The notes under the pieces: model-generated | What the model was told of the DNA's origin: nothing | Seen by the model: only the letters and a program-made list of their open reading frames with translations | Database searches by the model: none | Virus record (IMG/VR): IMGVR_UViG_3300025769_012879 | Coordinates: 32,001 to 96,000 of that record | Strand: one strand, 5' to 3' | From: a virus | Length of the DNA: 64,000 bases | Program-made: the position numbers and the translations under genes | Shown: positions 1 to 21,116 of the stretch, in pieces | How positions within the stretch are numbered: position 1 is the first letter of the stretch | How the letters are laid out: each line of letters starts with the position of its first letter

Positions 1-736
1 TTTTAACTTTTTATGCGTTGCACAGTGGGGACCTAGAAAGAATATAGAAAACACAATAAGGTATTTTGTAGAAGAGTTCAAGGATGAGGAAGTTGGTCTT
101 GTCTTGAAAGTTTCAATCAAGGATGGTTCAACAATAGATTTTTACGAAGCAAAAAAGAGACTGACAGCACTTTTAAGTTCATATCCTGATAGAAAATGCG
201 ATGTTAACTTAATTCATGGATATATGAGCAAGGAAGAGTTAAGTTCTCTCTACACTCATCCACAAATCAAAGCAATGATTAACTTTGGTCACGGAGAAGG
301 TTATGGTTTGCCATTATTTGAAGCAGCAGCAGTCGGACTTCCAGTAATTACTCATGATTGGGGTGGGCAAAAAGACTTTCTATACGCACCAAAGAAGGAT
401 AAGAAGGGTAAAGAAAAGATTAAACCACATTTCAGCAAAATCTCTTATGATTTAAATCCAATTCAAAAAGAAGCAGTCTGGGATGGTGTTTTGCAACCTG
501 AAACAAAATGGGCGTTTCCTCACTGGGGATCGTGTCGTATTGCCATGAGACAGTGCTTTGAAAACTACGGACTCTTCTCTGGACAAGCAAAGAAGTTGAA
601 GAAGTGGGTGGTCAAAACTTTCACTAAAGAGAGTATAGAAAAAGAGTTTATTGAAAAGTCTTTAGGGGATTATTTTATCCTGAACGATATTCACGATGAA
701 ATCGATGATATGATAAGTGGATTAATGGATGATTAA
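1..736 (+). CDS. Glycosyltransferase, GT-B/GT4-like (5' partial; frame is open from position 2)
   Basis: Frame 2 reads FNFLCVAQWGPRKN... into the listed ORF; GT4 motif GEGYGLPLFEAAAVGLPVI. Confidence 0.85.
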   Translation, partial: FNFLCVAQWGPRKNIENTIRYFVEEFKDEEVGLVLKVSIKDGSTIDFYEAKKRLTALLSSYPDRKCDVNLIHGYMSKEELSSLYTHPQIKAMINFGHGEGYGLPLFEAAAVGLPVITHDWGGQKDFLYAPKKDKKGKEKIKPHFSKISYDLNPIQKEAVWDGVLQPETKWAFPHWGSCRIAMRQCFENYGLFSGQAKKLKKWVVKTFTKESIEKEFIEKSLGDYFILNDIHDEIDDMISGLMDD

Positions 737-3164
737 AAAAATAATATTTGTCTCAGATTTTTTCACTGAACAATTGACTGGAGGCGCGGAATTAACTTTT
801 GAGGCGCTGATTGAATCATGTATATTTTCACATATAAAAGTGAATTCGAAGCAGTTAACAAAAACTTTTATTAATGACAATAAAGACAATTATTGGATTT
901 TTGGAAATACTCATACTTTAAATGATGAGTTGTTGTTTTATATTAGTAAAAATTTAAATTATTCAACAATACAGTTTGATTACAAGTTTTGTAAGTATCG
1001 ACTACCAGAACTTCACGAGGAGAAGGGAGAAAATCCTTGTGATTGTAGTTCAAGTCGCCACGGTAAGATTTATTCAATCTTTTTAGCAAAATCTAACTCT
1101 ATTTGGTGGATGTCTAAAGAACAAAGAGATATTCACTTTTCCCACTTTCCTTATTTAGAAAAAACAGAAAATCATGTTTTAAGTTCCGTTTTTTCAGATA
1201 GTAACTTAAAGTTTTTTGAAGAGCATGAAAAGCAAGATAAAAATAATAAATACATTATTTTAAACTCAAATTCATGGGTCAAGGGAGTTCAAAAATCAAT
1301 AGAATATGCCGAGAAGAACAAACTTGACTATGATCTAGTTGAAAAGTTAACACATGATCAACTTTTAAGGACTTTAAGTGAATATAGTGGTTTGATATTT
1401 TTACCACAAGGGAAAGATACCTGTCCTCGTATAACAATTGAAGCAAAATTACTTGACTGTGAATTGATATTAAATGATAATGTCCAACACAAGGACGAAG
1501 AATGGTTTGAGAATAAAGATAAAATTATCGAGCATCTTAAAGAAAGTAAGAAACTATTTTGGAAGTATTTTGAAGATTTGTTTTTGAATAGTCTTGAAGG
1601 AGACGAAGATATACATTTCAAATTGGTTGTGACTTGTAGAAATGCGGAAGATACAATTGTTAAAACTATTAATAGTATTAAGGAACAAACATACTCAAAC
1701 TTTGAGTGCATTATTTCAGATGATTACTCAACTGATAAAACCTGCTCAATAATTGAAAGAGAAATTGACGGTGACAGTAGATTTAAGTTGGTTAAAAATG
1801 ATAAACAATCATTTCCTTGTAAAAATACTGAGATAGCAATTGACTCTTCTACAGATATAAAAGACGATGACGTAATATTTGTTCTTGGTGGTGATGATTG
1901 GTTACCAAGTAGAATAGTCTTGAGCAGACTTGCGTATCACTACAAATTAAATGATTGTTGGTGTACTTATGGTTCCTGGTGGACACAGAACAAAGAAATG
2001 ACTCCTTTTTATATGCAACAGTACAGAGCAGACATTGTAAAATTAAATCTCTTTAGAAGTTCTCCCTGGGTAGCATCTTCTCCAAGAACATTCAAATATT
2101 TCTTATGGGATAAGATTGACAAAGAGGATCTTACGGATGTTGATGGGGAATACTATAAGTGTGCAACAGATTTTGCCTACTTCATACCAATATTGGAAAT
2201 GGCAGGAAATAGAAGTTTGTACATAAACGATATTTTGTACACATATAATCGTGAAACACCAATGAATATGGATAAAATATATCCTGGCAAACAGCACGAA
2301 AATGAATTAAAGATAAGAAAAAGAAAGAGGTACTCACCGTTAAACTCTAACTATCCAAACTGGAGTATCGCTTGCATATCTTATAATGATGCTAAATACT
2401 TGCAAGGGTTTTTGAACTCCTGTTTAGGTCAAGAAGGTCTCAAAGACATATTTGTTGTTGACCATAGAAGTGATGATAATACCCATGATGTTTTAGAGAG
2501 AATGAAAGATAAGTGCTCTGAGCATGGTATAGAACTAAACTCAGTAAGATGTGAACAAGATTTTAGTGCCAACTTTACTATGGCAGATTTAAGACTGATG
2601 AGTGTGAAGGGGTGTAAACAAGAACTTGTTTCTATACAAGATGCAGATAACCTGCTTGGTCCAAACATGCCAGAACTTGTTAGAGCAGCGTCAATAGTTT
2701 TGAATAAAGACCGTAAAAAATATCTCTTCGGTGTATCATATCCAGTGCCCGTCGTTTATGACGGGATAGAGATTCACAACAAAAAAGTTGTTAATCATGG
2801 TCGATGCATCATGCATAACCCAATACCAAGAATTTTATTAAAAAGTCGCACTGATTGCTATCAAGACGGAAGATATTATAGATTCAAAGACATTCATGCT
2901 CCAAACGGAGAAAATGATAGTTTGGTAGTTAGGATGCCATACGCTGCAAGCACAAACATTTCTTTGAGTTTTAGAGATAAAGAGAGGCAAAAGTTAAGAA
3001 GTGTGATGGGTGATTATTTTGAGAAATCAACAAGTGGAGAAGTTGATAAAGGTTATTTAGATAGTTTTAAAGATGGTGATCTCGGCAAGGGAGAAGTGTT
3101 TGATATTGACGGCATGGAAAACCCAATATTCTCAATTGTTGATGAGGAATATAATTGTCAATGA
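729..3164 (+). CDS. Multi-domain glycosyltransferase (GT-B-like N-terminal domain plus two GT2/GT-A-like domains)
   Basis: DTCPRITIEAKLL (GT-B-like); VVTCRNAEDTI...IISDDYSTD (GT2); ACISYND...VVDHRSDD...IQDADN (second GT2 with DxD). Confidence 0.8.
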   Translation: MIKKIIFVSDFFTEQLTGGAELTFEALIESCIFSHIKVNSKQLTKTFINDNKDNYWIFGNTHTLNDELLFYISKNLNYSTIQFDYKFCKYRLPELHEEKGENPCDCSSSRHGKIYSIFLAKSNSIWWMSKEQRDIHFSHFPYLEKTENHVLSSVFSDSNLKFFEEHEKQDKNNKYIILNSNSWVKGVQKSIEYAEKNKLDYDLVEKLTHDQLLRTLSEYSGLIFLPQGKDTCPRITIEAKLLDCELILNDNVQHKDEEWFENKDKIIEHLKESKKLFWKYFEDLFLNSLEGDEDIHFKLVVTCRNAEDTIVKTINSIKEQTYSNFECIISDDYSTDKTCSIIEREIDGDSRFKLVKNDKQSFPCKNTEIAIDSSTDIKDDDVIFVLGGDDWLPSRIVLSRLAYHYKLNDCWCTYGSWWTQNKEMTPFYMQQYRADIVKLNLFRSSPWVASSPRTFKYFLWDKIDKEDLTDVDGEYYKCATDFAYFIPILEMAGNRSLYINDILYTYNRETPMNMDKIYPGKQHENELKIRKRKRYSPLNSNYPNWSIACISYNDAKYLQGFLNSCLGQEGLKDIFVVDHRSDDNTHDVLERMKDKCSEHGIELNSVRCEQDFSANFTMADLRLMSVKGCKQELVSIQDADNLLGPNMPELVRAASIVLNKDRKKYLFGVSYPVPVVYDGIEIHNKKVVNHGRCIMHNPIPRILLKSRTDCYQDGRYYRFKDIHAPNGENDSLVVRMPYAASTNISLSFRDKERQKLRSVMGDYFEKSTSGEVDKGYLDSFKDGDLGKGEVFDIDGMENPIFSIVDEEYNCQ

Positions 3165-4261
3165 AAAAGAAGGTGTGTTTTATAGCAGCAAACGATTATG
3201 CTAATTGTTTAACTGAGTGGCGCAATTGCTTGAATACATATTCAGACAAATATGAGGCAAAAATAATTTGCTTTCATAAGCACACTTTTAAATACAGTTC
3301 TCAGCATGATTGGGATATTGACGGTTCTACATCTGAAGATTTAGAGTCCGCTAAGAATTGGTTGCTACAAAGTGATATAGTGATTGTCGCAGAAGAAATT
3401 GGCGTACATTGTAATAGAGGCGTTGCGGAAGAATATTCGAATAAAGGAGAAATTTCAAATATTGATGAATATAGGAGCAGCACTTTACTTAAGATTGATA
3501 ATTTGTTTCAAATTGAACTTTATGGAAAAGATAAACCGAAAAAAATGATCAATTTTCACTCTGGAAGCGTCTATAGGAGACAGTATAAACCCCTCAACTA
3601 TTTTAGTTTTGAATATCAAAAAACCTTTTATGGTCCAGATCTCTATAGATTGGGACCTAACAAGGAAAAAGATAGAGTTGTTTACTGCACTTATGTTTCT
3701 GGTCTTTCTTCAAGTCAAACTAAAAAAATGATTGATGAAAAGTTTAACAAAGAAAAAATAATAATTTCTCACACACCATCAAATGTTAAAAATAAGGGCA
3801 CTAAGTCTATAAATAGAGTTGTTAATAGGGTGTTAAAAAATATAAAAAATCCTGACAGATTTGAGTATGTTGTAAGAACTGGTGTATCTCATGATGAGAT
3901 AATTGATCTAAAAAAGAATTCTCACATTTGTATAGGTGAGTTTACAGATCAATCTTTTGATATTGGTGGATTTGGTGTTAGTACGATTGAAAGTGCTGCT
4001 TATGGAAATGTCTGTCTTGCATCAACTTACAACATAACAGAGGACGCTGTTAATAAAGCAAATGAGGGAGTTGGCAGCAAACAAATGAAAATTGTTGATA
4101 TTGGAAACACTGAATCTTATTTTGAAAAAGTTCTTACAAGAATTTTATCTCTTGAAACAGATAAAATTAAAAAACTTGCAAATGTGACGTATAATTGGTA
4201 TGAGGAATACTTGTCACCAATGTCTGTGTGCAAGAAATTAGAATATGAGTTTGAAAACTAA
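3161..4261 (+). CDS. Putative GT-B glycosyltransferase
   Basis: HTPSNVKNKGT and GGFGVSTIESAAYG resemble GT4-type motifs; lies within the sugar cluster. Confidence 0.6.
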   Translation: MKKKVCFIAANDYANCLTEWRNCLNTYSDKYEAKIICFHKHTFKYSSQHDWDIDGSTSEDLESAKNWLLQSDIVIVAEEIGVHCNRGVAEEYSNKGEISNIDEYRSSTLLKIDNLFQIELYGKDKPKKMINFHSGSVYRRQYKPLNYFSFEYQKTFYGPDLYRLGPNKEKDRVVYCTYVSGLSSSQTKKMIDEKFNKEKIIISHTPSNVKNKGTKSINRVVNRVLKNIKNPDRFEYVVRTGVSHDEIIDLKKNSHICIGEFTDQSFDIGGFGVSTIESAAYGNVCLASTYNITEDAVNKANEGVGSKQMKIVDIGNTESYFEKVLTRILSLETDKIKKLANVTYNWYEEYLSPMSVCKKLEYEFEN

Positions 4262-4874
4262 AATAGGTATAGTTGATTATGGATTGGGTAACGTTGGATC
4301 CATACAGAACATGCTTAAAAAGATTGGATATCATGATGTTTGCGTTGTAAAAAGTAAAAATGATTTCAATAAAGTTTCAAAATTAATTTTACCCGGCGTT
4401 GGTGCTTTTGATACAGCAATGAAAAAAATCCAAGATAGTTTTGGAATTGAGTATCTAAAAGATCAGATTATAAATAAAAAACAATCAACTCTTGGCATAT
4501 GTCTAGGTATGCAAGTTTTGGCAAACGATAGCGAAGAAGGTTGTTTGAAAGGACTTGAACTTATAGATTGTTCTGTCAAAAAGATAATTGTTGAAGAAGG
4601 GACAAATTTAAAAATTCCACACATGGGTTGGAATTATGTAAAAACAGAAAAAGAAAATCTATTAATGAGTGGATTGGAAAACAAAGATTACTATTTTGTT
4701 CATTCCTATTATGTTGATTGTCATAATCAAGAAAATGTCTTAATGACAACAAATTACCATAAGGACTTTGCTTCTGTGATATCCCGTGATAATATTTACG
4801 GTGTTCAATTTCACCCTGAAAAAAGTCATAAGCATGGTATGAAATTACTGAAAAACTTTGTTGAACTATGCTGA
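4245..4874 (+). CDS. hisH: Class I glutamine amidotransferase, HisH-like (WbuY type)
   Basis: IVDYGLGN, LPGVG, GICLG (catalytic Cys), PHMGWN, FVHSY, QFHPEK. Confidence 0.93.
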   Translation: MSLKTKIGIVDYGLGNVGSIQNMLKKIGYHDVCVVKSKNDFNKVSKLILPGVGAFDTAMKKIQDSFGIEYLKDQIINKKQSTLGICLGMQVLANDSEEGCLKGLELIDCSVKKIIVEEGTNLKIPHMGWNYVKTEKENLLMSGLENKDYYFVHSYYVDCHNQENVLMTTNYHKDFASVISRDNIYGVQFHPEKSHKHGMKLLKNFVELC

Positions 4875-5638
4875 GAAAAAGAATAATACCATGTCTTTTA
4901 ATGCTGGATGGCAATTTAGTAAAGACGAGAAAATTTAAAGAACCAAAATATGTTGGCGATCCAATAAATGCTGTAACCATCTTCAATGATAAAGAGTTGG
5001 ATGAGATTATCTTACTAGATATTGGTTGTTCAAAAAATAATACTGAAATAAACTACGATATTCTTGAAAAGGTTGTTAAAGAATGCTTTATCCCTCTAAC
5101 CTATGGCGGTGGAGTGCAAACTATAGACCAGATGAAAAAAATCTTTTCTTTGGGAGTAGAGAAAATAGTAGTAAACAATTCAGCAATAAACAATCCTAAA
5201 CTTTTAAAAGAAGCAGTTAAAATGTTTGGATCACAGAGTATAATAGCAGGAGTTGATGTTAAGAAAAGTTTTTTTAAGAAAAACAAGATCTTTTCACACG
5301 TAAGCGGAAAAACCTTAAATAAACCGTTAGAGAAATATTTTATCGAATTGCAAGAAATTGGAGTTGGTGAAGTGTTTTTAAACTCTGTTGACGGAGATGG
5401 GACCTGGGAGGGTTACGATGTCAGTACCAACAAAGCAATATCAAAACTTTTAAATGTGCCAATTATTGCTTGCGGAGGCGCGGGAAACCATAAACATATT
5501 CATTCTCTGTTTAATAGTACAGATGTTATGGCAGCAGCGCTTGGAAGTATGGCAGTTTATCAAAAGAAAGATTTTGGCGTTTTAATAAATTTTCCGCTAA
5601 AAAAAGAAAGAGAGAGAATTTTATATGAAAGAGTGTAA
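4868..5638 (+). CDS. hisF: HisF-like TIM-barrel subunit (WbuZ type, polysaccharide-associated)
   Basis: RIIPCL, LVKT..F...YVGDPINAV, DEIILLDI, PLTYGGG, IACGGAG. Confidence 0.9.
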   Translation: MLRKRIIPCLLMLDGNLVKTRKFKEPKYVGDPINAVTIFNDKELDEIILLDIGCSKNNTEINYDILEKVVKECFIPLTYGGGVQTIDQMKKIFSLGVEKIVVNNSAINNPKLLKEAVKMFGSQSIIAGVDVKKSFFKKNKIFSHVSGKTLNKPLEKYFIELQEIGVGEVFLNSVDGDGTWEGYDVSTNKAISKLLNVPIIACGGAGNHKHIHSLFNSTDVMAAALGSMAVYQKKDFGVLINFPLKKERERILYERV

Positions 5639-6758
5639 TATATGTCTATATAACGACGATGCGATACCACACATCGATTTTGATGAGAATGGGGTGTGCA
5701 ATTATTGCAAGCAGCATGAAACAATGTCAGTAGAGTTTCCCATTGGGGAATCTGGTGATCAAAAACTAAATGACATTATTCAGCAGATAAAAGAAGATGG
5801 TAAAACAAAGCAATACGACGTTGTTGTTGGGTTTAGCGGTGGATGTGATTCTTCTTACCTACTAGACTTGGCAGTTAAGCATGGGTTGAGACCATTAGCA
5901 GTTCATTATGACAACACATGGAACTCTAAGATTGCAGTTGAAAATATTTACAAACTAACAAAAAAACTAAATGTAGACTTATATACACACGTTGTCGACA
6001 CAAAAGAACACAATTTGGTTTATAGGTCTCTATTGAACGCATCAGTTCCAGATATTGATAGTCACAATGATATGGGGTTACAAACAACTTTGTATCTAGC
6101 GGCAGAGAAATATAACATTAAATACATTTGGCAGGGTCACGCTTTTAGAACTGAGGGGATTACCCCGCATGGATGGACCTATATTGATGCAAAGTACGTT
6201 CAGAGCGTCCACACAGCGAATGGTGGCAAGAAAATCAAGACAATACCATTAATGTGGTTGCACAAATGGTTTAAATGGATGCTATACAATAAAATAAAAA
6301 GAATAAGACCTCTCTATTATATTGATTATAAGAAGCAGGAAGTTAAGAAATATCTAAAAGAGAAGTATGATTGGGAATGGTATGGTGGTCATCATATGGA
6401 GAATAAGACTGCATACTTTGTAAACAACTATTGGTTGCCTAATAAGTTTAAAATAGACACTAGAATTGTAGAGTTATCAGCACAGATTAGATCGGGACAC
6501 ATGACAAAACAGGAAGCAAAGGAAGTTTTGTCAGAAAAAATGACATACGATGACAGTTTGACAGATGAGGTTAAAAGTCGTTTAGGGTTGACAGATGAAG
6601 AGTTTGGTGTTATAATGAGGAACCCTAATAAAAGTTTCAAAGATTTTAAAAACTACAAAAAGACTTTTGAAAATTTAAGATGGGTTTTTTGGTTACTATA
6701 CAAAACAAACTTTGTACCAAAAAGTTTTTACGATAAATACACAAAAAAATATGATTAA
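5625..6758 (+). CDS. N-acetyl sugar amidotransferase (WbuX/WbpG/PseA family, PP-loop)
   Basis: N-terminal CxxC...CxxC, PP-loop SGGCDSS, HYDNTWNS; directly follows the HisH/HisF pair. Confidence 0.9.
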   Translation: MKECNICLYNDDAIPHIDFDENGVCNYCKQHETMSVEFPIGESGDQKLNDIIQQIKEDGKTKQYDVVVGFSGGCDSSYLLDLAVKHGLRPLAVHYDNTWNSKIAVENIYKLTKKLNVDLYTHVVDTKEHNLVYRSLLNASVPDIDSHNDMGLQTTLYLAAEKYNIKYIWQGHAFRTEGITPHGWTYIDAKYVQSVHTANGGKKIKTIPLMWLHKWFKWMLYNKIKRIRPLYYIDYKKQEVKKYLKEKYDWEWYGGHHMENKTAYFVNNYWLPNKFKIDTRIVELSAQIRSGHMTKQEAKEVLSEKMTYDDSLTDEVKSRLGLTDEEFGVIMRNPNKSFKDFKNYKKTFENLRWVFWLLYKTNFVPKSFYDKYTKKYD

Positions 6759-7401
6759 AAAAGTTATTATACTCGGAACAGGTGGAAATTGCCTGGATAT
6801 ATTAGACACAATCAACGATATTAATGAAAAAGAAAAGAAATATGAATGTGTCGGTTTTTTAGACGACAATGAAAGCATGTGGGGCAAAACCTTAATGGGT
6901 AAAAAAGTTTTAGGTCCGCTCAAACTTGCTAAAGATTATGATGATTGCTTTTTTGTAAATGGAATAGGGAGCGATAGAACCTTTCTGTTTAAAAAGAAGA
7001 TTATCGATTCAACTGGTGTAACACTAGATAAGTTTGAAACAATTATTCATCCCACTGCAAGTGTTTCTAGGACTGCAAAACTTGGTAATGGAGTTGTTGT
7101 ATTTCAAAATGTTACAATTACCACAAATGTGGAGGTGGGTAATCATGTTATTATTTTACCCAATTCAATAGTAAGTCACGACTCAATAGTTGGTGATTAT
7201 TGTTGTATAACTGGCGGTGTTGCTATTTCTGGAATGGTTAAGATAGGAGAGTTCTGCTATGTTGGTACTGGCAGTTCAATTAGAAATGGTGTGACAGTAG
7301 GTAAGAACAGTTTGATAGGCATGGGAGGCGTAGTTACAAAAGATATTGAGTCTGAATCAGTTGTTTACGGAGCACCCGCAAAATTTATTAGGAAAACATG
7401 A
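6751..7401 (+). CDS. Sugar acetyltransferase, NeuD/PglD family (left-handed beta-helix)
   Basis: ILGTGG N-terminal domain, GFLDD, TIIHPTA, hexapeptide repeats, VYGAPAK. Confidence 0.9.
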   Translation: MIKKVIILGTGGNCLDILDTINDINEKEKKYECVGFLDDNESMWGKTLMGKKVLGPLKLAKDYDDCFFVNGIGSDRTFLFKKKIIDSTGVTLDKFETIIHPTASVSRTAKLGNGVVVFQNVTITTNVEVGNHVIILPNSIVSHDSIVGDYCCITGGVAISGMVKIGEFCYVGTGSSIRNGVTVGKNSLIGMGGVVTKDIESESVVYGAPAKFIRKT

Positions 7402-8366
7402 AGAGAATTTTAAAAGATAAAAACATTTTAGTTACAGGCGGCGCTGGTTTTATTGGCGGTTCTTTGGTTAGAAAACTACAATCAGATAACAATGTTGTAG
7501 TATACGATAATCTTTTTCACGAAAGATTAGATTTTTCGGAAATAAAGAACTCAATTAAGTTTGTAAAAGGTGACATCTTGGACTATGATTTACTAGAAAG
7601 TGTCATACGAGAAAATAAAATAAATGTTGTTGTTCATGCTGCCGCGATTGCAGGTATAGACACGGTTACTAAAAACCCTGTTAATACAATGGAGGTTAAC
7701 GCAATTGGCACATTTAATGTCTTGAGGGCATGTACCGCAAACATGGAAAACATCGAGCAGGTTCTTGAGTTTTCAACTTCTGAGGTCTTTGGTCCAACCG
7801 CCTACAAGACAACAGAGAAAGATAAGACTGTAACTTGTGCTACTGGTGATGCACGTTGGATATATGCCGTTAGTAAACTGGCAGGAGAACACATGTCTAG
7901 TTGTTATCACAAGCAATACAACTTACCAGTAACCACTGTGCGACCATTTAATGTTTATGGTCCAGGTCAGGTTGGCGACAGCGCAATGCGAACATTTGTT
8001 TTAAACGCCTTAAGTGATAAGGATATAACAATACATGGTGATGGATCTCAAATAAGAGCATGGTGCTATATTGACGACTTTATTGACTGCATTATGAAGT
8101 GTCTGAGCGATGATAGCGCAATAGGTGAATGTTTTAACATAGGAGACTCAAAGTCCGTAGTTACAATATTTCACTTGGCAAAAATGATAAAAAGATTAGC
8201 GAAGTCTAATTCAGAAATTAAATTTGTATCTGCAAATCAGGCAGATGTTTCCTTGAGAATTCCTAGTGTAGAAAAAGCAAAAAATGTTTTAGGATTTGAA
8301 GCGGCAGTAGGAATTGAAGAAGGGATTGAAAAAACAATCGAATATTTTAGAGGTAAAAATGATTAA
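7398..8366 (+). CDS. NAD-dependent nucleotide-sugar epimerase/dehydratase (extended SDR)
   Basis: VTGGAGFIG, STSEVFG, YAVSK (YxxxK), RPFNVYGP. Confidence 0.92.
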   Translation: MKRILKDKNILVTGGAGFIGGSLVRKLQSDNNVVVYDNLFHERLDFSEIKNSIKFVKGDILDYDLLESVIRENKINVVVHAAAIAGIDTVTKNPVNTMEVNAIGTFNVLRACTANMENIEQVLEFSTSEVFGPTAYKTTEKDKTVTCATGDARWIYAVSKLAGEHMSSCYHKQYNLPVTTVRPFNVYGPGQVGDSAMRTFVLNALSDKDITIHGDGSQIRAWCYIDDFIDCIMKCLSDDSAIGECFNIGDSKSVVTIFHLAKMIKRLAKSNSEIKFVSANQADVSLRIPSVEKAKNVLGFEAAVGIEEGIEKTIEYFRGKND

Positions 8367-9462
8367 GTTTTTTGATTACACAAGAGTGTTAAAACCACAT
8401 AAAGAAGAGATTTATGAAAGAATGGATCGGATATTTGACGATGGAATATTCATTCTAGGAGGTCAAGTAAAGGAGTTCGAAGATAAGTTCGCGGAATATA
8501 CTGGAGCAAAGCACGCTGTAGGTGTTTCAAGCGGCACAGACGCCCTGCTAACGATCTTTATGGCACTAGACCTAGAACCAGGGGATGAGGTCATAGTAAC
8601 GCCATATACGTTTGTGGCGTCGATTACATCTATTGTTAGGGCGGGATTGAAACCAGTATTTGTTGACGTTGAAAAAGACTCTTATCATCCCACAGTTGAT
8701 TCAATTATTGAAAAGTGGACTGATAAAACAAAAGCAGTTTTGTACGTGCATTTGTTTGGAGAGGCGATTGACTTAGATAAGTTAAAAAAGCACTGTGAAC
8801 AAAATGATGCATTCTTAATTGAAGACTGTGCTCAATCTTTTGGATCAAAATACAGTGATGGAAAAAGTGTTGGCACCATCGGAGATGCTGGAGCATTTAG
8901 TTTCTTTCCAGCAAAAAACTTAGGGTGCTTGGGCGATGGGGGAATGGTCATAACTTCAAATGATGCCTTGCATGAAAAAGTATCAATGATTCGAAAGCAT
9001 GGGTCTAAAAAGAGGTATTACCACGAAATTTTGGGTGGTAACTTTCGCCTGGATACAATTCAAGCAGCAGCATTGAATGTTCTCTTGCCACAGATAGATA
9101 CTTGGGTTTCTAAAAGAAAAGATAACGCCAATTATTATTTAAAAAATATAAGAAATAACAATATAATAGGGTTACCGGAAGACTATCCAGGTAATTCATG
9201 GAATCAGTTTGTAATTCGAACCAAGTTTAGAGATGAGTTGCAGAAGCATCTAAAAGAGAACGGCGTTCAAACTTTTATATACTGGGAATTGGGATGTCAC
9301 AAGCAAGAAGTCTTTAAAGACGAAGACTTTTCTAAGGTGCAAATGAACAACACAGATGAGATTTGTGATCAAGTATTGGCGTTGCCAGTTTATCCAATGT
9401 TGAAAGAAGAAGAGCGTAAAAAGGTTGTAGAGTTAATTAACTCTTTTAAGGTAGGAGAATAA
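8359..9462 (+). CDS. DegT/DnrJ/EryC1/StrS PLP-dependent sugar aminotransferase (WbpE-like)
   Basis: SSGTDAL, EDCAQSFG, SFFPAKNLG (PLP Lys), GGNFRLDTIQAA; GAGGT RBS before ATG 8359. Confidence 0.93.
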   Translation: MIKFFDYTRVLKPHKEEIYERMDRIFDDGIFILGGQVKEFEDKFAEYTGAKHAVGVSSGTDALLTIFMALDLEPGDEVIVTPYTFVASITSIVRAGLKPVFVDVEKDSYHPTVDSIIEKWTDKTKAVLYVHLFGEAIDLDKLKKHCEQNDAFLIEDCAQSFGSKYSDGKSVGTIGDAGAFSFFPAKNLGCLGDGGMVITSNDALHEKVSMIRKHGSKKRYYHEILGGNFRLDTIQAAALNVLLPQIDTWVSKRKDNANYYLKNIRNNNIIGLPEDYPGNSWNQFVIRTKFRDELQKHLKENGVQTFIYWELGCHKQEVFKDEDFSKVQMNNTDEICDQVLALPVYPMLKEEERKKVVELINSFKVGE

Positions 9463-9463
9463 A

Positions 9464-9856
9464 ATGATACATGAGACAGCAAATTTGTATGATTCTTGTA
9501 CTATAGGAGATAATACAAAAATCGGTGCATTTTCAGAAATAGGAAAAGATGTAAAGATTGGAGATAATTGTTCAATTGGTTACGGTGTATTTATACCAGA
9601 GAACGTAATTCTAGAAGATGGTGTTTTTATAGGTCCTGGTACTGTATTTACAAATGATAAATACGCCCCATCAAGAGGGAAGTGGAGAGATGATCCCCCA
9701 ACAGTTGTGAAGGCGGGGGCAACAATAGGCGCAAATTGCACGATTCTACCTAGTTTAACCATTGGTGAGGGTGCTAGAGTTGGCGCTGGTTCTGTAGTCA
9801 CAAGAGACGTTGAGCAGGGATCCATTGTTTTTGGAAATCCTGCTAAAAAGAGATAA
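9464..9856 (+). CDS. Hexapeptide-repeat N-acetyltransferase (WbpD-like)
   Basis: IGPGTVFTND, GATIGANCTI, GAGSVVTRDV, GNPAK; AGGAG RBS. Confidence 0.88.
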   Translation: MIHETANLYDSCTIGDNTKIGAFSEIGKDVKIGDNCSIGYGVFIPENVILEDGVFIGPGTVFTNDKYAPSRGKWRDDPPTVVKAGATIGANCTILPSLTIGEGARVGAGSVVTRDVEQGSIVFGNPAKKR

Positions 9857-9886
9857 AACAAATTAAAATTATTTAAGGAGACATAA

Positions 9887-10795
9887 GTGAAAAATTTTGG
9901 TCTAATTGGTGCAGCGGGATATATTGCACCAAGACACATGCAAGCAATTAAAGAAACAGGAAACAATTTGAAGGTAGCGTTAGATCCATCTGATTCTGTT
10001 GGAATTATGGATTCATACTTTCCAGACGCTTCTTTTTTTACAGAGACGGAAAGATTTGATAGACACATAGACAAGTTAAAGCATAAGGGTCAAGGATTAG
10101 ATTACATATCTGTTTGCTCACCCAATTATCTTCACGATTCTCATGTCCGTCTTGGGTTGAGGGCAGGTTGTGATGTGATTTGTGAAAAACCACTGGTTTT
10201 AAACCCCAAAAACATTGACTATCTCAAGATTCTAGAGGAGCAGACTGGTAAAAAAATTAATAACATTTTACAATTAAGACACCACTATATCATAAAAGAG
10301 TTGAAAAATAGTGTTGAAAACTCTCCAAAAGATAAGATTTATGATTTTGATTTGACATACATTACTTCTCGTGGGTTGTGGTACCACCACTCTTGGAAGG
10401 GAGATGAAAGTAAGTCTGGTGGACTTGTAACTAACATTGGTGTTCACTTTTTTGATATGCTTATGTGGATTTTTGGAGGTGTTGAGGAGAACATTGTCCA
10501 TGAGAGAAACAAAAGCGCTGTTAGCGGAACTCTTAGACTTGAAAGAGCAAATGTAAGATGGTTTTTAAGTTGCGACTACAATAGATTACCACAGGAAGTC
10601 AAGGACAAGGGACAAAGGACCTTTAGGAATATTTCTATAGACGGAAACGAAATGGAATTCAGTAAGGGATTTACAGATTTACATATTAAAAGTTATCAAG
10701 AAATTTTGAATGGAAATGGTTTTAGGATTGAAGAAGTCAAACCGTCAATTCAATTGGTATATGATATTGCAAAATCAGAACTAGTGGAGGTATAA
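9887..10795 (+). CDS. wbpB: Gfo/Idh/MocA oxidoreductase, WbpB-like (UDP-GlcNAcA 3-dehydrogenase)
   Basis: IGAAGYIAPRH, CSPNYLHDSH, CEKPLV, TYITSRG.WY..SWKGD..KSGG..TNIGVHFFD, GFTDLH..SY. Confidence 0.88.
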   Translation: MKNFGLIGAAGYIAPRHMQAIKETGNNLKVALDPSDSVGIMDSYFPDASFFTETERFDRHIDKLKHKGQGLDYISVCSPNYLHDSHVRLGLRAGCDVICEKPLVLNPKNIDYLKILEEQTGKKINNILQLRHHYIIKELKNSVENSPKDKIYDFDLTYITSRGLWYHHSWKGDESKSGGLVTNIGVHFFDMLMWIFGGVEENIVHERNKSAVSGTLRLERANVRWFLSCDYNRLPQEVKDKGQRTFRNISIDGNEMEFSKGFTDLHIKSYQEILNGNGFRIEEVKPSIQLVYDIAKSELVEV

Positions 10796-10796
10796 A

Positions 10797-10979
10797 ATGA
10801 TTTTATCTGATCAAGCGTTAGGTGCAGTAATGATGGCACTACAGAAATCTTTACTAGAACAATCAGACATTGTTCCAGTTTTAAAGAGTTTTAATTTTAC
10901 AGCAGATGGAGAGGAGTTAACAGTTGACAACCCACCATCATTCAAGTTGGACGAGTTTGATGATGCAGAAGATAGTTGA
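10797..10979 (+). CDS. Small hypothetical protein
   Basis: 60-aa ORF with GGAGG RBS, tightly packed. Confidence 0.7.
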   Translation: MILSDQALGAVMMALQKSLLEQSDIVPVLKSFNFTADGEELTVDNPPSFKLDEFDDAEDS

Positions 10980-11319
10980 GAAACCTTGGGGGCATGAAAA
11001 GATTATCGTTCATACTGACAAGTATGTTATGAAAAAACTGTTCATTAAAGCAGGTCAGCGATTGTCTAGGCAGTTTCATGTCCAGAAAGACGAAACAGTA
11101 TATGTTTGCCAGGGAATGCTTCTTCTAGATTTGTCAAGAAATGATAATGAGAGTAATATTGTGAAACTGAAAGAGGGTAAGTCTTGGAGAATTACACCAA
11201 ATACAATTCACAGATTTACTGCACCAGAGAATCAAGATGTTGTACTATATGAGGTCTCAACACCAGAATTAGACGATGTTGTACGCCTTTCAGACGATTA
11301 TGGGAGAGCAGGTGCCTAA
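10960..11319 (+). CDS. Cupin protein (mannose-6-phosphate isomerase type II C-terminal-like)
   Basis: VEKPWG, LSRQFHVQKDET, HRF, EVSTPELDDVVRLSDDYGR. Confidence 0.85.
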   Translation: MMQKIVEKPWGHEKIIVHTDKYVMKKLFIKAGQRLSRQFHVQKDETVYVCQGMLLLDLSRNDNESNIVKLKEGKSWRITPNTIHRFTAPENQDVVLYEVSTPELDDVVRLSDDYGRAGA

Positions 11320-11578
11320 GTATCATTATAAATGTAACAGTTGTACGAGAGAGTGGTGGGAGTGGTTACCCGTTTCCGAATCAAATAGAAAGGTATGCCC
11401 TCATTGTCAGGGACCACCCCCACAAAAAATTCCCACTGGATTCACGGTGATCGGAGGGAAAGTTGAAGAAAAAAAAGATTCCAAAGAAAATGTAGTATCT
11501 CATATTGAAGAAAATAGAGAAATTCTTAAAAAAATGAGAGAACAAGCAAAAACCAAGGATGTGTTTGAAAATGATTGA
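11312..11578 (+). CDS. FmdB-like zinc-ribbon protein
   Basis: GTG start gives MPKYHYKCNSC...CPHC, the FmdB-type pattern. Confidence 0.7.
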   Translation: MPKYHYKCNSCTREWWEWLPVSESNRKVCPHCQGPPPQKIPTGFTVIGGKVEEKKDSKENVVSHIEENREILKKMREQAKTKDVFEND

Positions 11579-11843
11579 AAGTTTAGCAATAATAGGGACA
11601 ATAATCTTTATTGGTCTTTTTTTCGGGTCTGTTTGGTTCAATGTGTTTTTAATAAGAAAACTTTTGTACTTCAATGAAAATTTTGATCAGATTGATCTAT
11701 CGGTGGATAGTTTTACAAAACACCTAGAGGAGTTGTATGATTTGCCGATGTTTTATGGCGATGAGAATTTAGAAAAATTATTAGAGCATTCAAGAGAGTT
11801 AAGAAGAGATTTAGAAGAGTTTAAGAGCAAATATTCACAATGA
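11571..11843 (+). CDS. Membrane-anchored hypothetical protein
   Basis: N-terminal hydrophobic helix followed by a helical soluble part; overlaps both neighbours. Confidence 0.65.
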   Translation: MIESLAIIGTIIFIGLFFGSVWFNVFLIRKLLYFNENFDQIDLSVDSFTKHLEELYDLPMFYGDENLEKLLEHSRELRRDLEEFKSKYSQ

Positions 11844-12529
11844 GAAAAAGAAAAAAGAGAACAAAAAATTTATATTTTACTAAGATACATGAAGAAGCGA
11901 TAGTGCAATACGCAAGATCAACAAACTTGGCAGAAAAAACAAAACTATACGCGACATTAATACAACCAGCATTTAATGAACTTGTAGATAAGATTGTTTA
12001 CACATATAAGTTTAACAATCTTCCAAATATTGATTATTTAAAGGATGATTGTAAGGTTTGGTTGACAACAATCTTGGATAAGTATAATCCAGATAGAGGG
12101 TCTAAGGCATTCTCATATTTCAGCGTAATCACCAAGAACTGGTTCATCCATAAGGTAAAAAAGAACGCTCAGGCAGCAAAGAGAGAGATTCCCATGGAAG
12201 ACGTCCTAAAGACTTCTCAGAGTGAATTTATTGTAGTTGACAACCCCTACGAGAGAGACCGTGAGAAAAGAGAGTTTTGGGAGTCGCTCACATTGTTTGT
12301 GAAGAGTTTGGAAAAGAACACCTCGGTAATTAAAAACGAAAATGATCGTAAAGTCATATCTTCAATTGAATATATGCTTGAAAACATGGATAAATTAGAA
12401 ATTTTAAATAAAAAAGCAATTTATTTATACTTGCGTGAAATGACAGGGTTGACAACAAAGCAATTAGCACCAACACTTAGAAAGGTTAAGGTAGAATACA
12501 GGCATTTCATTACAAAATGGAATAACTAA
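11840..12529 (+). CDS. Phage late-transcription sigma factor (T4 gp55-like)
   Basis: KYNPDRGSKAFSYFSVITKNWF matches the sigma region 2 pattern of gp55-like proteins; directly precedes the virion genes. Confidence 0.75.
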   Translation: MRKRKKRTKNLYFTKIHEEAIVQYARSTNLAEKTKLYATLIQPAFNELVDKIVYTYKFNNLPNIDYLKDDCKVWLTTILDKYNPDRGSKAFSYFSVITKNWFIHKVKKNAQAAKREIPMEDVLKTSQSEFIVVDNPYERDREKREFWESLTLFVKSLEKNTSVIKNENDRKVISSIEYMLENMDKLEILNKKAIYLYLREMTGLTTKQLAPTLRKVKVEYRHFITKWNN

Positions 12530-17847: not shown

Positions 17848-19641
17848 ATGCCAAATAAAAAAGTAAAACCAGTAAAATATGCCAGCAAAAACTTTGAAGA
17901 AATAAAGCAACAGTTGGTGACATATGCAAAAACTTATTATCCTGATACATACAAGGATTTTAATCAGGCGTCTTTTGGTTCTTTAATGCTTGACACAGTT
18001 GCCTACATAGGTGACATGCTTTCGTTTTATATCGATTATCAATCAAACGAATCTTTTATTGATAGCGCAATAGAAACTCAGAATCTTTTAAAGTTAGCAA
18101 AGCAATTTGGATATAAAAACCCTGCTTCTTTTTCATCAGCAGGCAAATGCGCCTTTTATGTTCAGGTCCCTGCCAATACTGATGGAACACAAAATTTCGA
18201 TTTAATTCCTACTCTTAAAGAGGGAACAACTCTTTCAAGTAACACCGGAACATCATTTACACTTACATCAGATGTAGACTTCACAAAAACAGATACAGAA
18301 ATTGTTGTTGCAGCAGAAGTTGAAGGAGTTCCAACAATATATGCCTATAAGTCTTACGGCGATGTTTTATCTGGTATTATAGAGACTGAGATATTGGAAG
18401 TCACCCAATACGAAAAGTTTTTAAAATTAACTTTGGATGCAGATGAGATAACTGAAATTATTTCTGTAGTGGATAAAGAGGGTAATGAGTATTATGAGGT
18501 TCCCTATCTTTCTCACAATGTAATTCTACAACCAATAAGAAATCCAAATATTGAAGGCGGCGAAGATGCCCCATATATTTTAAGAGAGAAATTGTCATCT
18601 AGAAGATTCATAGTTGACGTTGATGAGAACGGTAAAACCTCCTTACAGTTTGGATATGGTTCAGAAGACAGCATAAAAGAAGATGATTACCCTGATCCAT
18701 CTAGAACTTCATTGCAGAGGTATGCCAGAACATATTATTCAGACGATAGTTTTGATCCAAATGTTTTATTGGAAAATGATAAGTTTGGTGTCGTACCACC
18801 TGTTGGTGGATTAAGTGTAACTTTTAGACGCAACAATGGTGATTCTGTTAATGTGCCAGTAAATTCTGTAGATTCTGTTGATGAACCACAATTATCTTTT
18901 AACACTGATAGTCCTCCCTCTTCTGAGAATCTTTCTTTTATCAGATCATCACTTGATGTTGATAACGAAGAAGCAATATTGGGGAATGTCGCAGATGTTA
19001 CCCAGGAAGAAATTAGAATCAGAGCATTAAACGCCTATTCTTTGCAGAATAGAGCAGTGACTCAACAAGATTACATTAGTTTAATATATCGAATGCCAGC
19101 AAAGTTTGGCGCTATTAAAAGAGCAAATATCGTTCAGGACAAGGATTCATTTAAAAGAAACTTAAACTTGTACGTCATATCTGAGGATATAGATGGAAAT
19201 CTAACAACAACACCATCAACAGTCAAAGAGAATTTGAAGGTTTGGTTGAATCAATATAAAATGATTAATGACACAATCGATATTTTAGATGGGTATGTGG
19301 TAAATTATTTTGTAGAATACAAAGTTTTGGGCGCATTAGATTACTCACAGTCAGAAGTTTTAAACCAGTGTAATGACGCAATAAAGCAGTTGTTGGCAAC
19401 TCAATCTTTGTTTGGGCAACCATTTTACATTTCTGACATCTATAAAGTATTAAATGATCTTGATTCTGTTATTGACACTCAAGATGTGCAAATTAAACAA
19501 AGATTTGGTGAAAATTATAGTCCATTTGCTTTTGATATCAACGGTGCAACAACTGACGATGGCAGATTTATCATTGTACCAGAAAATGCAATTATGGAAT
19601 TAAAATCACCAGATGAAAATATTATTGGAGTGGTAGTCTAA
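17848..19641 (+). CDS. Baseplate wedge protein, T4 gp6/baseplate J-like
   Basis: YPDTYKDFNQASFG.LMLD..AYIGD.LSFY.D, LQFGYG, QNRAVTQQDY. Confidence 0.88.
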   Translation: MPNKKVKPVKYASKNFEEIKQQLVTYAKTYYPDTYKDFNQASFGSLMLDTVAYIGDMLSFYIDYQSNESFIDSAIETQNLLKLAKQFGYKNPASFSSAGKCAFYVQVPANTDGTQNFDLIPTLKEGTTLSSNTGTSFTLTSDVDFTKTDTEIVVAAEVEGVPTIYAYKSYGDVLSGIIETEILEVTQYEKFLKLTLDADEITEIISVVDKEGNEYYEVPYLSHNVILQPIRNPNIEGGEDAPYILREKLSSRRFIVDVDENGKTSLQFGYGSEDSIKEDDYPDPSRTSLQRYARTYYSDDSFDPNVLLENDKFGVVPPVGGLSVTFRRNNGDSVNVPVNSVDSVDEPQLSFNTDSPPSSENLSFIRSSLDVDNEEAILGNVADVTQEEIRIRALNAYSLQNRAVTQQDYISLIYRMPAKFGAIKRANIVQDKDSFKRNLNLYVISEDIDGNLTTTPSTVKENLKVWLNQYKMINDTIDILDGYVVNYFVEYKVLGALDYSQSEVLNQCNDAIKQLLATQSLFGQPFYISDIYKVLNDLDSVIDTQDVQIKQRFGENYSPFAFDINGATTDDGRFIIVPENAIMELKSPDENIIGVVV

Positions 19642-21116
19642 TGGCAATCAGAAGATTTAAAGCAACAAAAGATAATACCATCACTAACGCGTTTAAAGCG
19701 AACCTTACTACTCGTGGTACTGGTTCAAACATGGGTGAATCAGATATTCTAGAAGTTTTTAGTATATATGCACAAGCAAACACCGCTTCTAGTGAGTTAT
19801 CAAGAGTTTTAATTGAGTTTGACATCAACGCTTTGTCAGCATCAAGAGACAGTGGCAATATCCCAGATTCTGGATCTGTTGATTTTTACTTAAGAATGTT
19901 TAATGCTGAACATTCTTCAACCACCCCAACAAACTATACTCTTACAGTCGCAGCAATCTCACAGTCATGGACAGAAGGAATTGGTCTTGATATGGATGAT
20001 TACTCTGATCCTGGCGCTTCAAACTGGATTGATGCAAGTTCCACTACTACATGGACCATTCAAGGTGGTGATTACCTTACTGGAACATTGGATACCGTTT
20101 CAACACAAGTATTCCCCACAGGTATCGAAGATTTACAGGTTGATGTAACTCATCAAGTTGAAGAGTGGTTAAATAACAATACTGCTAGTTATGGATTTGG
20201 CGTATTTTTAACATCATCTTTAGAAGAGGCAGCAACTTCATACTACACAAAGAAATTCTTTGCAAGAGATAGTCAATACTTTTTGAAGCGACCCGTTATT
20301 GAAGCAAGGTGGAACGACAACAGAGGCGATGATGCTGCTAATTTCTATTTGAGTTCATCTAGAGTTCCAGCAGCAGATAACTTAAATAAACTATACCTTT
20401 ACAACTATGTTAGAGGTCAGTTGCAAAATATACCAGGAGTTGGAACTGGAGATATTTTATTGAGTGTTTACTCTGGTTCTAATTCTGTTTTAGATACATC
20501 AAAGATAGGACTTCCTGTTGGCGGCGGTGTTGTTGCCAATGGGGATAGAAACATTACGGGTAGTTATGTTTCAACAGGTATTTATTCAGCAGAGTTTGCC
20601 TACACAAGTTCAGGTATAACTGAAATATATCCAGTTTGGCACAGCGGATCAACAGAATACTTAACTGCATCAGCAGTTACAGTGAATACTTTTGAGACAC
20701 AAACACCCTACCCTATAAATTCTTATAAAACAAGTATTACGAACCTACAGTCTGAATATGGATCATCTGACGTTGCTCACTTTAGAGTGTTTGTACAAAA
20801 CAAAAACTTTGAAGCAACTGTTTATACTATTGCATCAACAGCAGTTGAACCAACAATTGTAGAGAAAATGTATTACAAGGTTCAAAGATTTGTTGATGAG
20901 CAGGTAGTAATTGATTACGGCACTGGGTCTGGAAATGCAAGTTATTCACAACTTTCTTATGATTCTGCTGGAAATTATTTTGATTTGGATATGAGCGTCT
21001 TCGAACCAGATTTTTCATATCAAATTAGTTTTTTAATTAATGACGCAGGTAATTACTATGAACTAAAAGATAAATTTAAATTTAGAGTAATTGACGAAAA
21101 CGACCTACCGGGTTAA
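19641..21116 (+). CDS. Virion structural protein (baseplate-associated, beta-rich)
   Basis: Overlaps the gp6-like gene; SRVLIEFD, SQSWTEGIG; Ser/Thr-rich. Confidence 0.65.
   Translation: MAIRRFKATKDNTITNAFKANLTTRGTGSNMGESDILEVFSIYAQANTASSELSRVLIEFDINALSASRDSGNIPDSGSVDFYLRMFNAEHSSTTPTNYTLTVAAISQSWTEGIGLDMDDYSDPGASNWIDASSTTTWTIQGGDYLTGTLDTVSTQVFPTGIEDLQVDVTHQVEEWLNNNTASYGFGVFLTSSLEEAATSYYTKKFFARDSQYFLKRPVIEARWNDNRGDDAANFYLSSSRVPAADNLNKLYLYNYVRGQLQNIPGVGTGDILLSVYSGSNSVLDTSKIGLPVGGGVVANGDRNITGSYVSTGIYSAEFAYTSSGITEIYPVWHSGSTEYLTASAVTVNTFETQTPYPINSYKTSITNLQSEYGSSDVAHFRVFVQNKNFEATVYTIASTAVEPTIVEKMYYKVQRFVDEQVVIDYGTGSGNASYSQLSYDSAGNYFDLDMSVFEPDFSYQISFLINDAGNYYELKDKFKFRVIDENDLPG

Follow-up and report, generated by a model that had tools for sequence, protein, structure and literature searches.

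The window analysed here is a stretch of 64,000 nucleotides, bases 32001-96000 of a single linear viral contig of 141,045 bp (IMG/VR record IMGVR_UViG_3300025769_012879) that CheckV estimates to be about 78% complete; the 32 kb upstream of the window were also examined, and positions in that flank carry the prefix L002 (L002:6114-7124 corresponds to contig 25114-26124). At its beginning the window holds most of an island of nucleotide-sugar enzymes and glycosyltransferases (GTs), which is the subject of this report. Nearly all long open reading frames (ORFs) of the contig lie on the plus strand, and the window encodes a terminase, a portal protein, a T4-type major head protein and a baseplate wedge protein. 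By capsid sequence the nearest deposited phages are Microcystis phage Mel-JY01, Flavobacterium phage vB_FspM_immuto (hereafter immuto, whose capsid is among the nearest from cultured phages) and Rhodothermus phage RM378, all below 52% identity, which together with the T4-type head genes marks this genome, by sequence comparison, as that of a distant, aquatic T4-like myovirus.

The island extends over about 13 kb, all on the plus strand (Table 1): it begins 1.8 kb before the window with a gene for a GT4-family enzyme, GT4a, and runs into a gp55-like sigma gene, and from the nuclease gene preceding GT4a through the sigma gene neighbouring genes overlap or are separated by no more than 30 nt. Genes were identified with Pfam and NCBIfam profiles at curated cut-offs, and solved relatives by sequence matches to the PDB. 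A first-pass annotation of the window had listed WbpB-like, WbpE-like and WbpD-like enzymes, a HisH, HisF and WbuX/WbpG set, a second acetyltransferase, a short-chain dehydrogenase/reductase (SDR), a cupin and several GT domains in one run leading into a late sigma gene. By Pfam and NCBIfam all of these enzymes are present, in place and on the plus strand; the run into the sigma gene is indeed contiguous, but it begins outside the window, with GT4b starting 556 nt upstream of it and GT4a lying before that. The sigma gene is conserved in relatives (53-56% identity), although its own profile match is weak.

The enzymes for the early steps can be assigned by class. The WbpB protein is matched over its full length by a solved WbpB; the DegT aminotransferase is close to QdtB (4e-82) and WbpE (5e-61), both C-3 aminotransferases; and the best solved relatives of the compact LbH enzyme, which is 66-70% identical in three related phages (L087-L089), are all 3-N-acetyltransferases, WlbB among them at 6e-24. 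Conversion of host UDP-N-acetylglucosaminuronic acid (UDP-GlcNAcA) to UDP-2,3-diacetamido-2,3-dideoxy-glucuronate (UDP-GlcNAc3NAcA) in the first three steps is well supported at this level of enzyme class, with substrates predicted from the classes. The HisH, HisF2 and WbuX genes overlap one another, each product scores above its NCBIfam cut-off, and the SGGxDS loop of WbuX is invariant across the WbuX alignment. Both this set and the WbpB/C-3 aminotransferase/3-N-acetyltransferase trio had been correctly identified in the first-pass annotation, as PDB matches, NCBIfam cut-offs and the DegT tree described below attest. The second acetyltransferase is of the NeuD type: its closest PDB relatives are VioB, PerB and PglD, acetylators of C-4 amines, and it is 58% identical to the acetyltransferase encoded behind an ArnB-like DegT in the bacterial locus L058.

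Comparison with other viruses suggests that the island represents one variant of a hypervariable glycan cassette, which a widespread lineage of aquatic T4-like phages carries at a fixed site between a nuclease-GT4-GT4 block and the late sigma gene. Homologues of GT4a (48-79% identity) occur in 75 viral contigs, in which the synteny of the block is kept for the nuclease in 75, for GT4a in 71 and for GT4b in 61. Behind GT4b the genes vary from contig to contig; even the closest relatives (GT4a 75-79%, nuclease 85-91% identical) carry other types of DegT and SDR and no Wbp, WbuX or decarboxylase genes. The sigma gene lies 1,050 nt and 4.6 kb from GT4b in two GT4a-relative loci (L325 and L298, respectively) and beyond the 10-kb flank in most. 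In immuto (MW353176), at 48-60 kb of its genome, the nuclease-GT-GT block is followed by another cassette, comprising two aminotransferases, a PglD-like 'pilin glycosylation protein', an SDR, a methyltransferase and three more GTs.

Export machinery is lacking throughout. The 141-kb contig, at about 78% completeness, has no match to WbpA (PF03721), WbpI (PF02350), a phosphoglycosyl transferase (PF02397) or Wzx (PF01943), and none of its ORFs exceeds about three hydrophobic segments, the island proteins having none; the earlier statement that WbpA and WbpI equivalents are absent from the window thus extends to the upstream flank and the whole contig, and within this incomplete contig the upstream genes for lipid-carrier assembly or export that would have refuted the first-pass interpretation were not found. 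Among ORFs of at least 100 aa in 83 related phage loci (1.36 Mb), 0 of 1,376 have four or more hydrophobic segments, against 104 such ORFs in bacterial loci that carry a homologous SDR (1.28 Mb); the phage cassettes therefore lack the lipid-carrier and export proteins found alongside these enzymes in bacteria.

A candidate acceptor signal is found in the virion proteins. Measured against per-protein shuffles, the tripeptide [ST]-[GA]-S occurs 68 times in the virion block (25 expected) and 23 times elsewhere (24.5 expected), and the excess is directional: virion proteins contain 42 T[GA]S but 16 of the mirror-image S[GA]T (p = 9e-4), while the counts elsewhere are 11 and 14. Individual sites stand alone, in varied, non-repetitive contexts with a mild hydrophobic preference at position -1, and four proteins are especially enriched (Table 1). 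A sequon would be expected to leave such a pattern, although this is an indirect indication. The island adjoins the late sigma and virion genes, and the phage's own outward-facing virion proteins are the most likely acceptor; because the island has no export genes, the sugar most likely ends up on proteins of the phage particle rather than on the host surface. We accordingly favour, with a probability of about 0.5, a reading in which a hypervariable cassette makes a sugar by the steps set out below and soluble GTs transfer it to virion proteins at [ST]-[GA]-S.

The main rival to a virion acceptor is use of the host's lipid carrier, whereby the phage enzymes and peripheral GTs would feed host undecaprenyl-phosphate, flippase and polymerase and so alter an O-antigen, capsule or S-layer glycan, for example blocking superinfection or the sticking of progeny to debris. 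The enzymes are of bacterial O-antigen type and their closest homologues lie in polysaccharide clusters with polytopic membrane proteins, the cassette resembles O-antigen loci in its variability, and the phage relies on its host for at least UDP-GlcNAcA. It is also textbook knowledge that O-antigen GT4 and GT2 enzymes, being soluble or peripheral, need no transmembrane segment, and the lack of a membrane GT, formerly advanced as an argument for a cytoplasmic acceptor, does not discriminate between the two. Against host-surface remodelling, Wzx, Wzy, ligase and initiating transferase are found in 0 of the 83 phage loci, whereas O-antigen-converting phages usually bring at least one membrane component; the GT4 pair is retained as the sugars vary, which would suit a fixed phage acceptor more than a diversity of lipid-linked host acceptors; and only virion proteins show the directional tripeptide excess. 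On balance we regard host-surface remodelling as rather unlikely.

The identity of the sugar turns on the SDR, a family-level call that stands but can be narrowed to the UXS/ArnA type by its T-S-E, YxxxK and Arg residues. After PDB entry 8VR2, the SDR best matches human UXS1, a UDP-glucuronate decarboxylase (7e-44), with which its motifs FSTSEVFG, YAVSK and GSQIRAW align, the Arg of GSQxRA being kept. T-S-E together with this Arg is characteristic of UXS/ArnA enzymes, which oxidize C-4 and decarboxylate, whereas 4,6-dehydratases have T-D-E and 4-epimerases S-S-S/A. A route of the RmlB/QdtA/QdtB/QdtC kind, in which the cupin would be a 3,4-ketoisomerase and the product a 3-acetamido-6-deoxy sugar, was rejected because the SDR has T-S-E and not T-D-E, no nucleotidyltransferase is present and the orthology of WbpB is unambiguous. 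Bacterial homologues of the SDR were found in 80 loci (best 50-53% identity), in 26 of which a DegT of the ArnB/Per class lies directly behind it. The recurrent bacterial order is WbpB, LbH, DegT, SDR, a second DegT (ArnB/Per) and NeuD or LbH; some loci add HisH-HisF-WbuX, a trio that in bacteria is linked to the decarboxylase/C-4 amine module as often as to WbpB. This placement of a C-4-class DegT after the SDR argues that bacteria use the enzyme in an ArnA/ArnB-like module, in which a uronate would be decarboxylated, aminated at C-4 and acylated on the new amine. Motif and context thus support a role of the phage SDR as a decarboxylase yielding a 4-keto-pentose. Given this signature and the bacterial pairing with a C-4 aminotransferase and an N-acyltransferase, the diamino-uronic acid that had been proposed as the end product is more likely an intermediate, and the end product is probably a di- or tri-N-acyl pentose.

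The phage lacks the second aminotransferase of the bacterial module. In a maximum-likelihood tree the DegT proteins that adjoin WbpB and those that follow the SDR form separate groups (99% and 97% support); the after-SDR DegT of L058 has two C-4 aminotransferases, perosamine synthetase and ArnB, as its nearest relatives, whereas the phage DegT and four other viral DegTs constitute one clade (100% support) inside the WbpB-adjacent group. This C-3-clade protein is the only DegT in the 141-kb contig, where no dedicated C-4 aminotransferase of the ArnB/Per class was found, and the same gap occurs in the viral contigs L092-L094. The idea that the phage DegT is a recombinant of C-4 and C-3 enzymes fails, as its identity to the phage and WbpB-adjacent groups is highest along the entire length. 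The recurrent gap points to an aminotransferase of dual specificity or to an undescribed pentose product.

Related viral contigs carry parts of the same pathway. WbpB is common to five of them (49-72% identity) and in four (L087-L089 and L091) occupies the same position before the sigma gene. A WbpI-type 2-epimerase is present in L087-L089 and a WbpA-type dehydrogenase in L088 and L089, such that these relatives probably encode a full Wbp route to the mannuronic acid form; their tailoring genes, and those of L091, differ (methyltransferases, a formyltransferase, an AsnB-type amidotransferase, a GDSL esterase). The decarboxylase (51-52%), HisH-HisF-WbuX (46-59%), a DegT, WbpB and a homologue of the 368-aa island protein recur together in at least three further viral contigs (L092-L094), two of them from records of 124 and 231 kb. 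Each has one DegT. The LbH acetyltransferase is present in L093 and L094, where it is followed by ORFs at the positions of WbpA and WbpI (those of L093, on which Pfam was run, match both families), and L092 ends just after WbpB. Behind the decarboxylase lies a two-domain formyltransferase in L092 and L093 and an LbH acetyltransferase in L094. Recurrence of this set suggests that a decarboxylase with a second N-acyltransferase and no ArnB-type enzyme is a repeated phage design and not an accident of one contig. In L092 (6761-8649) and L093 (6640-8531) the decarboxylase followed by a formyltransferase with N- and C-terminal domains has the appearance of a split bifunctional ArnA.

Further observations concern the distribution of these families. 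The WbpA-like dehydrogenases are only 271-280 aa long (L088:10930-11745, L089:11427-12245, L093:13391-14233) and match part of the N-terminal NAD-binding model and the central domain, the C-terminal UDP-binding domain not being reported; they may be truncated, split or start-miscalled. A separate WbuX-type amidotransferase family of 38-41% identity occurs in about 75 IMG/VR contigs (L095-L171), most of them short, in whose flanks neither HisH, HisF nor other island genes were detected. Viral WbuX relatives were found with an alignment as query, single-sequence scans having given none. Among 50,697 deposited phage records there is no WbpB or WbuX homologue, and the closest SDRs are only 27-33% identical to that of the island.

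The alternative that a 2,3-diacetamido (3-acetamidino) uronic acid remains the final sugar, as in Pseudomonas aeruginosa O5, with the SDR acting as a C-4 epimerase or other non-decarboxylase, would be compatible with any acceptor. WbpB, the C-3 aminotransferase, the 3-N-acetyltransferase and HisH-HisF-WbuX together suffice for GlcNAc3NAmA, and P. aeruginosa O5 has the same hisH2-hisF2-wbpG arrangement; L087-L089 and L093-L094 carry WbpI and/or WbpA and probably make the mannuronic acid form, and the contig has no C-4 aminotransferase. This alternative is nevertheless unlikely: the SDR retains the UXS Arg and shows neither the S-S-S/A of uronate or hexose 4-epimerases nor a dehydratase-type T-D-E, ArnB/Per-class aminotransferases come after its homologues in bacteria, in L092 and L093 it is followed by the formyltransferase that completes the ArnA domain pair, and the NeuD/VioB-type acetyltransferase would be left without a role.

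Apart from the GT4 pair, the island encodes further GT and GT-like domains, two of them of viral type. The N-terminal domain of about 290 aa that precedes two GT2 domains in the 811-aa protein is mainly viral, its nearest ESM-Atlas clusters being viral with some GT1, and homologues of the protein follow GT4b in 10 related loci. The 368-aa protein has neither a Pfam nor a PDB sequence match, and its single-sequence AlphaFold2 model (predicted local distance difference test score 39) is unusable for fold comparison; homologues with 28% identity lie beside the decarboxylase in L092-L094, and structural similarity of its Atlas model to GT1-family clusters makes it a probable GT-B glycosyltransferase. 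Its neighbours in ESM-Atlas feature space include the T4 DNA alpha-glucosyltransferase family at rank 17 (score 0.96), the closer ones being viral hypothetical or GT1-like clusters. GT4a also has a weak match to PF20706, 'GT4 in conflict systems' (E 6e-7), beneath its stronger Glycos_transf_1 match.

DNA hypermodification, in which the GTs would place the sugar on a hydroxymethylated base as in T4 and the phage clusters described by Pyle et al. (bioRxiv 10.1101/2023.12.21.572611), is very unlikely. That rank-17 neighbour speaks for it, as does the preprint's finding that phage GTs related to lipopolysaccharide enzymes glycosylate 5-hydroxymethylcytosine. Against it, the contig, about 78% complete, contains no match to a ThyA-family hydroxymethylase (PF00303), the tripeptide signal sits in virion proteins, and five or six GT domains with a tailored N-acyl sugar far exceed the needs of any reported DNA glycan; a search for TET/JBP gave no match in the contig either but had no working control and is uninformative. 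Of the two cytoplasmic acceptors proposed at first, virion protein is thus favoured by the lack of export genes, and DNA is unsupported by any such hydroxymethylase. That the island is bacterial DNA wrongly joined to a phage contig, a caveat of the first-pass annotation suggested by its bacterial-type enzymes and by a GC skew slightly above that of the downstream region, has a negligible probability, as its GC content (0.33-0.37) matches the rest of the contig, strand and gene packing are continuous with the phage genes to either side, the flanks and core genes recur in synteny in dozens of independent viral contigs and one cultured phage, and the phage DegTs form their own fully supported clade.

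Under the favoured reading of a virion-directed cassette, the host would supply UDP-GlcNAcA, for which the contig has no WbpA. WbpB would oxidize C-3, the phage DegT would aminate it and the LbH enzyme would acetylate the amine to give UDP-GlcNAc3NAcA, the enzyme classes being established and the substrates predicted. The UXS/ArnA-type SDR, judged by its motifs and bacterial context, would then oxidize C-4 and remove the carboxylate to give UDP-4-keto-2,3-diacetamido-pentose, the keto group of which would be reduced back or else aminated, with the NeuD/VioB-type enzyme acetylating the new amine; this amination at C-4 would have to come from the same DegT acting twice or from a host enzyme. HisH, HisF2 and WbuX would turn one acetamido group into an acetamidino group, and the five or six soluble GT domains would build the glycan on a cytoplasmic acceptor, the likely attachment being to Ser/Thr of the [ST]-[GA]-S tripeptide in outward-facing virion proteins. 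A bolder proposal, which we advance tentatively, is that a widespread aquatic T4-like phage lineage O-glycosylates its own outward-facing virion proteins at [ST]-[GA]-S by means of the conserved GT4 pair and a swappable rare-sugar cassette, the sugar here being an acetamidino di- or tri-N-acyl pentose made by a shortened route with one aminotransferase for both C-3 and C-4.

Several points weigh against this scheme. With the contig about 78% complete, WbpA, a C-4 aminotransferase or export genes could sit in the portion not recovered. Without a dedicated C-4 aminotransferase, the NeuD step lacks a demonstrated substrate. Soluble GT4 and GT2 enzymes also serve lipid-linked O-antigen assembly, and use of a host carrier and flippase is possible. 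The tripeptide enrichment is indirect and could stem from what the structures of fibre and baseplate proteins favour. No proposed step accommodates the cupin, the 60-aa ORF or the two viral-type GT-like domains. Finally, the function of the closest solved relative of the SDR, 8VR2 (also 8VR3 and 8VR5), was not found in the literature searched; these entries may belong to the Psychrobacter triacetamido-arabinose pathway, a possibility that is not used as evidence here.

Table 1. Features of the glycan island, its putative promoter and candidate acceptor proteins (window positions unless prefixed L002)
Feature	Position	Strand	Basis
GT4a, 423-aa GT4 glycosyltransferase	L002:11176-12447	+	Glycos_transf_1
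GT4b, 430-aa GT4, C-terminal part in window	1..736 (start L002:12444)	+	Pfam Glycos_transf_1
811-aa protein, N-terminal ~290-aa domain and two GT2 domains	729..3164	+	PF00535 E 4e-24 (two stretches), PF13704
368-aa probable GT-B-fold glycosyltransferase	3155..4261	+	Atlas model TM 0.72-0.75 to GT1-family clusters; Pfam: none
HisH-type glutaminase subunit (WbuY role)	4245..4874	+	TIGR01855, 230 bits vs cut-off 105
HisF2/AglZ/WbuZ-type cyclase-like subunit, acetamidino formation	4868..5638	+	NF038364, 323.4 bits vs cut-off 310
WbuX/WbpG-type PP-loop N-acetyl-sugar amidotransferase	5625..6758	+	TIGR03573, 221 bits vs cut-off 203
Putative promoter inside WbuX 3' end	6588..6616	+	sigma-70 consensus TTGACA, 17-nt spacer, TG-extended TATAAT
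NeuD/PglD/VioB-type N-acetyltransferase	6712..7401	+	TIGR03570, 190 bits vs cut-off 161
UXS/ArnA-type SDR, predicted C-4 oxidase/decarboxylase of UDP-uronic acid	7398..8366	+	motifs, PDB 8VR2 E 6e-97
DegT aminotransferase, C-3 (WbpE/QdtB) class	8314..9462	+	PF01041 E 1e-106
Compact 130-aa LbH N-acetyltransferase (WbpD/WlbB role)	9464..9856	+	PDB matches FdtD, 7S43, QdtC, WlbB
WbpB/WlbA UDP-GlcNAcA 3-dehydrogenase orthologue, Gfo/Idh/MocA	9887..10795	+	PDB 3OA2 'WbpB' E 1.8e-105, full length
Conserved 60-aa ORF	10797..10979	+	57-67% identity in related phages
131-aa cupin	10924..11319	+	PF01050 E 5e-12
FmdB-type zinc-ribbon protein	11276..11578	+	TIGR02605, 37 bits vs cut-off 31
gp55-like late sigma factor (probable), end of packed block	11840..12529	+	phrog_234 E 5e-4 (weak)
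Candidate acceptor, 491-aa virion protein after baseplate wedge gene	19641..21116	+	10 [ST][GA]S vs 1.5 expected, z = 6.9
Candidate acceptor, 2,944-aa giant virion protein	21149..29983	+	24 sites vs 6 expected, z = 7.2
Candidate acceptor, 443-aa virion-block protein	38769..40100	+	6 sites vs 1.0 expected, z = 5.4
Candidate acceptor, 985-aa protein running past window end	62141..64000	+	10 sites vs 1.9 expected, z = 6.0

The remaining genes of the packed block include the 60-aa ORF, always just upstream of the sigma gene in related phages; the cupin, with homologues in 9 related loci and no match in a PDB sequence search, which could be a keto-sugar isomerase or epimerase; and a 94-aa ORF between the FmdB-type zinc ribbon and the sigma gene. 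About 100 nt before the NeuD start lies the sole 12/12 match to the sigma-70 consensus in 14.5 kb, a predicted promoter through which host RNA polymerase could drive the half of the island from NeuD to the sigma gene. The T4 late-promoter motif TATAAATA shows no clear enrichment (10 occurrences against 5 expected, 10 being reached in 5 of 100 shuffles), and generic promoter and terminator scans gave counts equal to those of shuffles.

Upstream of GT4a lie genes for a PD-(D/E)XK nuclease, a 438-aa PIN-PhoH fusion (L002:8024-9340) adjoining a ClpP protease homologue, and a short adenylosuccinate-synthetase homologue of 336 aa (L002:6114-7124). The last aligns with true PurA in two stretches and shows an internal deletion (5e-56), whereas its match to the PurZ of phage phiVC8 reaches only 7e-18; the idea of a PurZ and a 2-aminoadenine genome was dropped on these values, and a PurA-type auxiliary gene is more likely than a marker of such a genome.

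Among known systems, the island resembles the Wbp/Wlb pathway (WbpA/B/E/D/I with HisH2-HisF2-WbpG in P. aeruginosa O5, WlbA-D in Bordetella) in its WbpB orthologue, C-3 aminotransferase and 3-N-acetyltransferase and in the order of its HisH-HisF-WbuX/WbpG trio. Unlike that pathway, it belongs to a lytic-type T4-like phage whose contig lacks WbpA and WbpI (which related phages have) as well as Wzx, Wzy and WbpL, and it adds the predicted decarboxylating SDR and a NeuD/VioB-type acetyltransferase. With the ArnA/ArnB route to UDP-4-amino-4-deoxy-L-arabinose it shares the ArnA/UXS catalytic signature and an N-acyltransferase gene adjoining that of the SDR, but this phage and three others have no ArnB-type aminotransferase, and the substrate is probably a 2,3-diacetamido uronate, not UDP-GlcA. 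Also comparable is the proposed Psychrobacter route to triacetamido-arabinose, pathway details of which were not found in the literature searched; 2,3,4-triacetamido-2,3,4-trideoxy-L-arabinose has been reported from Psychrobacter cryohalolentis (PMC8040287). Systems of the AglXYZ/WbuXYZ/PseA type (the flagellin glycan of Methanococcus maripaludis, L-FucNAm of Escherichia coli O145) are alike in that all three phage subunits exceed the NCBIfam cut-offs.

Tailed phages are usually regarded as bare protein particles. In mycobacteriophages, virions are reportedly glycosylated by phage-encoded glycosyltransferases, according to work by Freeman and colleagues in 2023. To our knowledge, only a few actinobacteriophages are documented to glycosylate their virions with enzymes of their own, and nucleotide-sugar pathways carried on a viral genome are documented mainly in giant viruses. 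Giant viruses have glycan machinery of their own (Chem Rev 2022, PMC9614988). Both cases resemble the present one in having their own GTs near structural genes without lipid-carrier machinery, giant viruses also in having their own nucleotide-sugar enzymes; they differ in lineage, candidate sequon and sugar chemistry, and the predicted glycosylation here would draw on a swappable cassette behind a conserved GT pair. Immuto, cultured from the Baltic Sea, has the same succession of a nuclease, a GT (35% identical to GT4a), another GT and a sugar cassette, but other cassette enzymes and no WbpB, WbuX or decarboxylase; 7-deazaguanine modification of its DNA has been described (bioRxiv 10.1101/2023.04.13.536721).

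What is specific to the cassette of this phage is its sugar chemistry and the recurrent missing aminotransferase. More broadly, an abundant aquatic T4-like group carries sugar-tailoring pathways of O-antigen grade, swapped between close relatives and without export genes, and the cultured relative immuto makes the virion question directly testable. Should the glycan sit on the virion, consequences would follow for adsorption, for sticking to particles and mucus, for grazing and for how host defences recognize the phage, and these phages would have 'serotypes' of their own, a counterpart of the serotype diversity of O-antigens.

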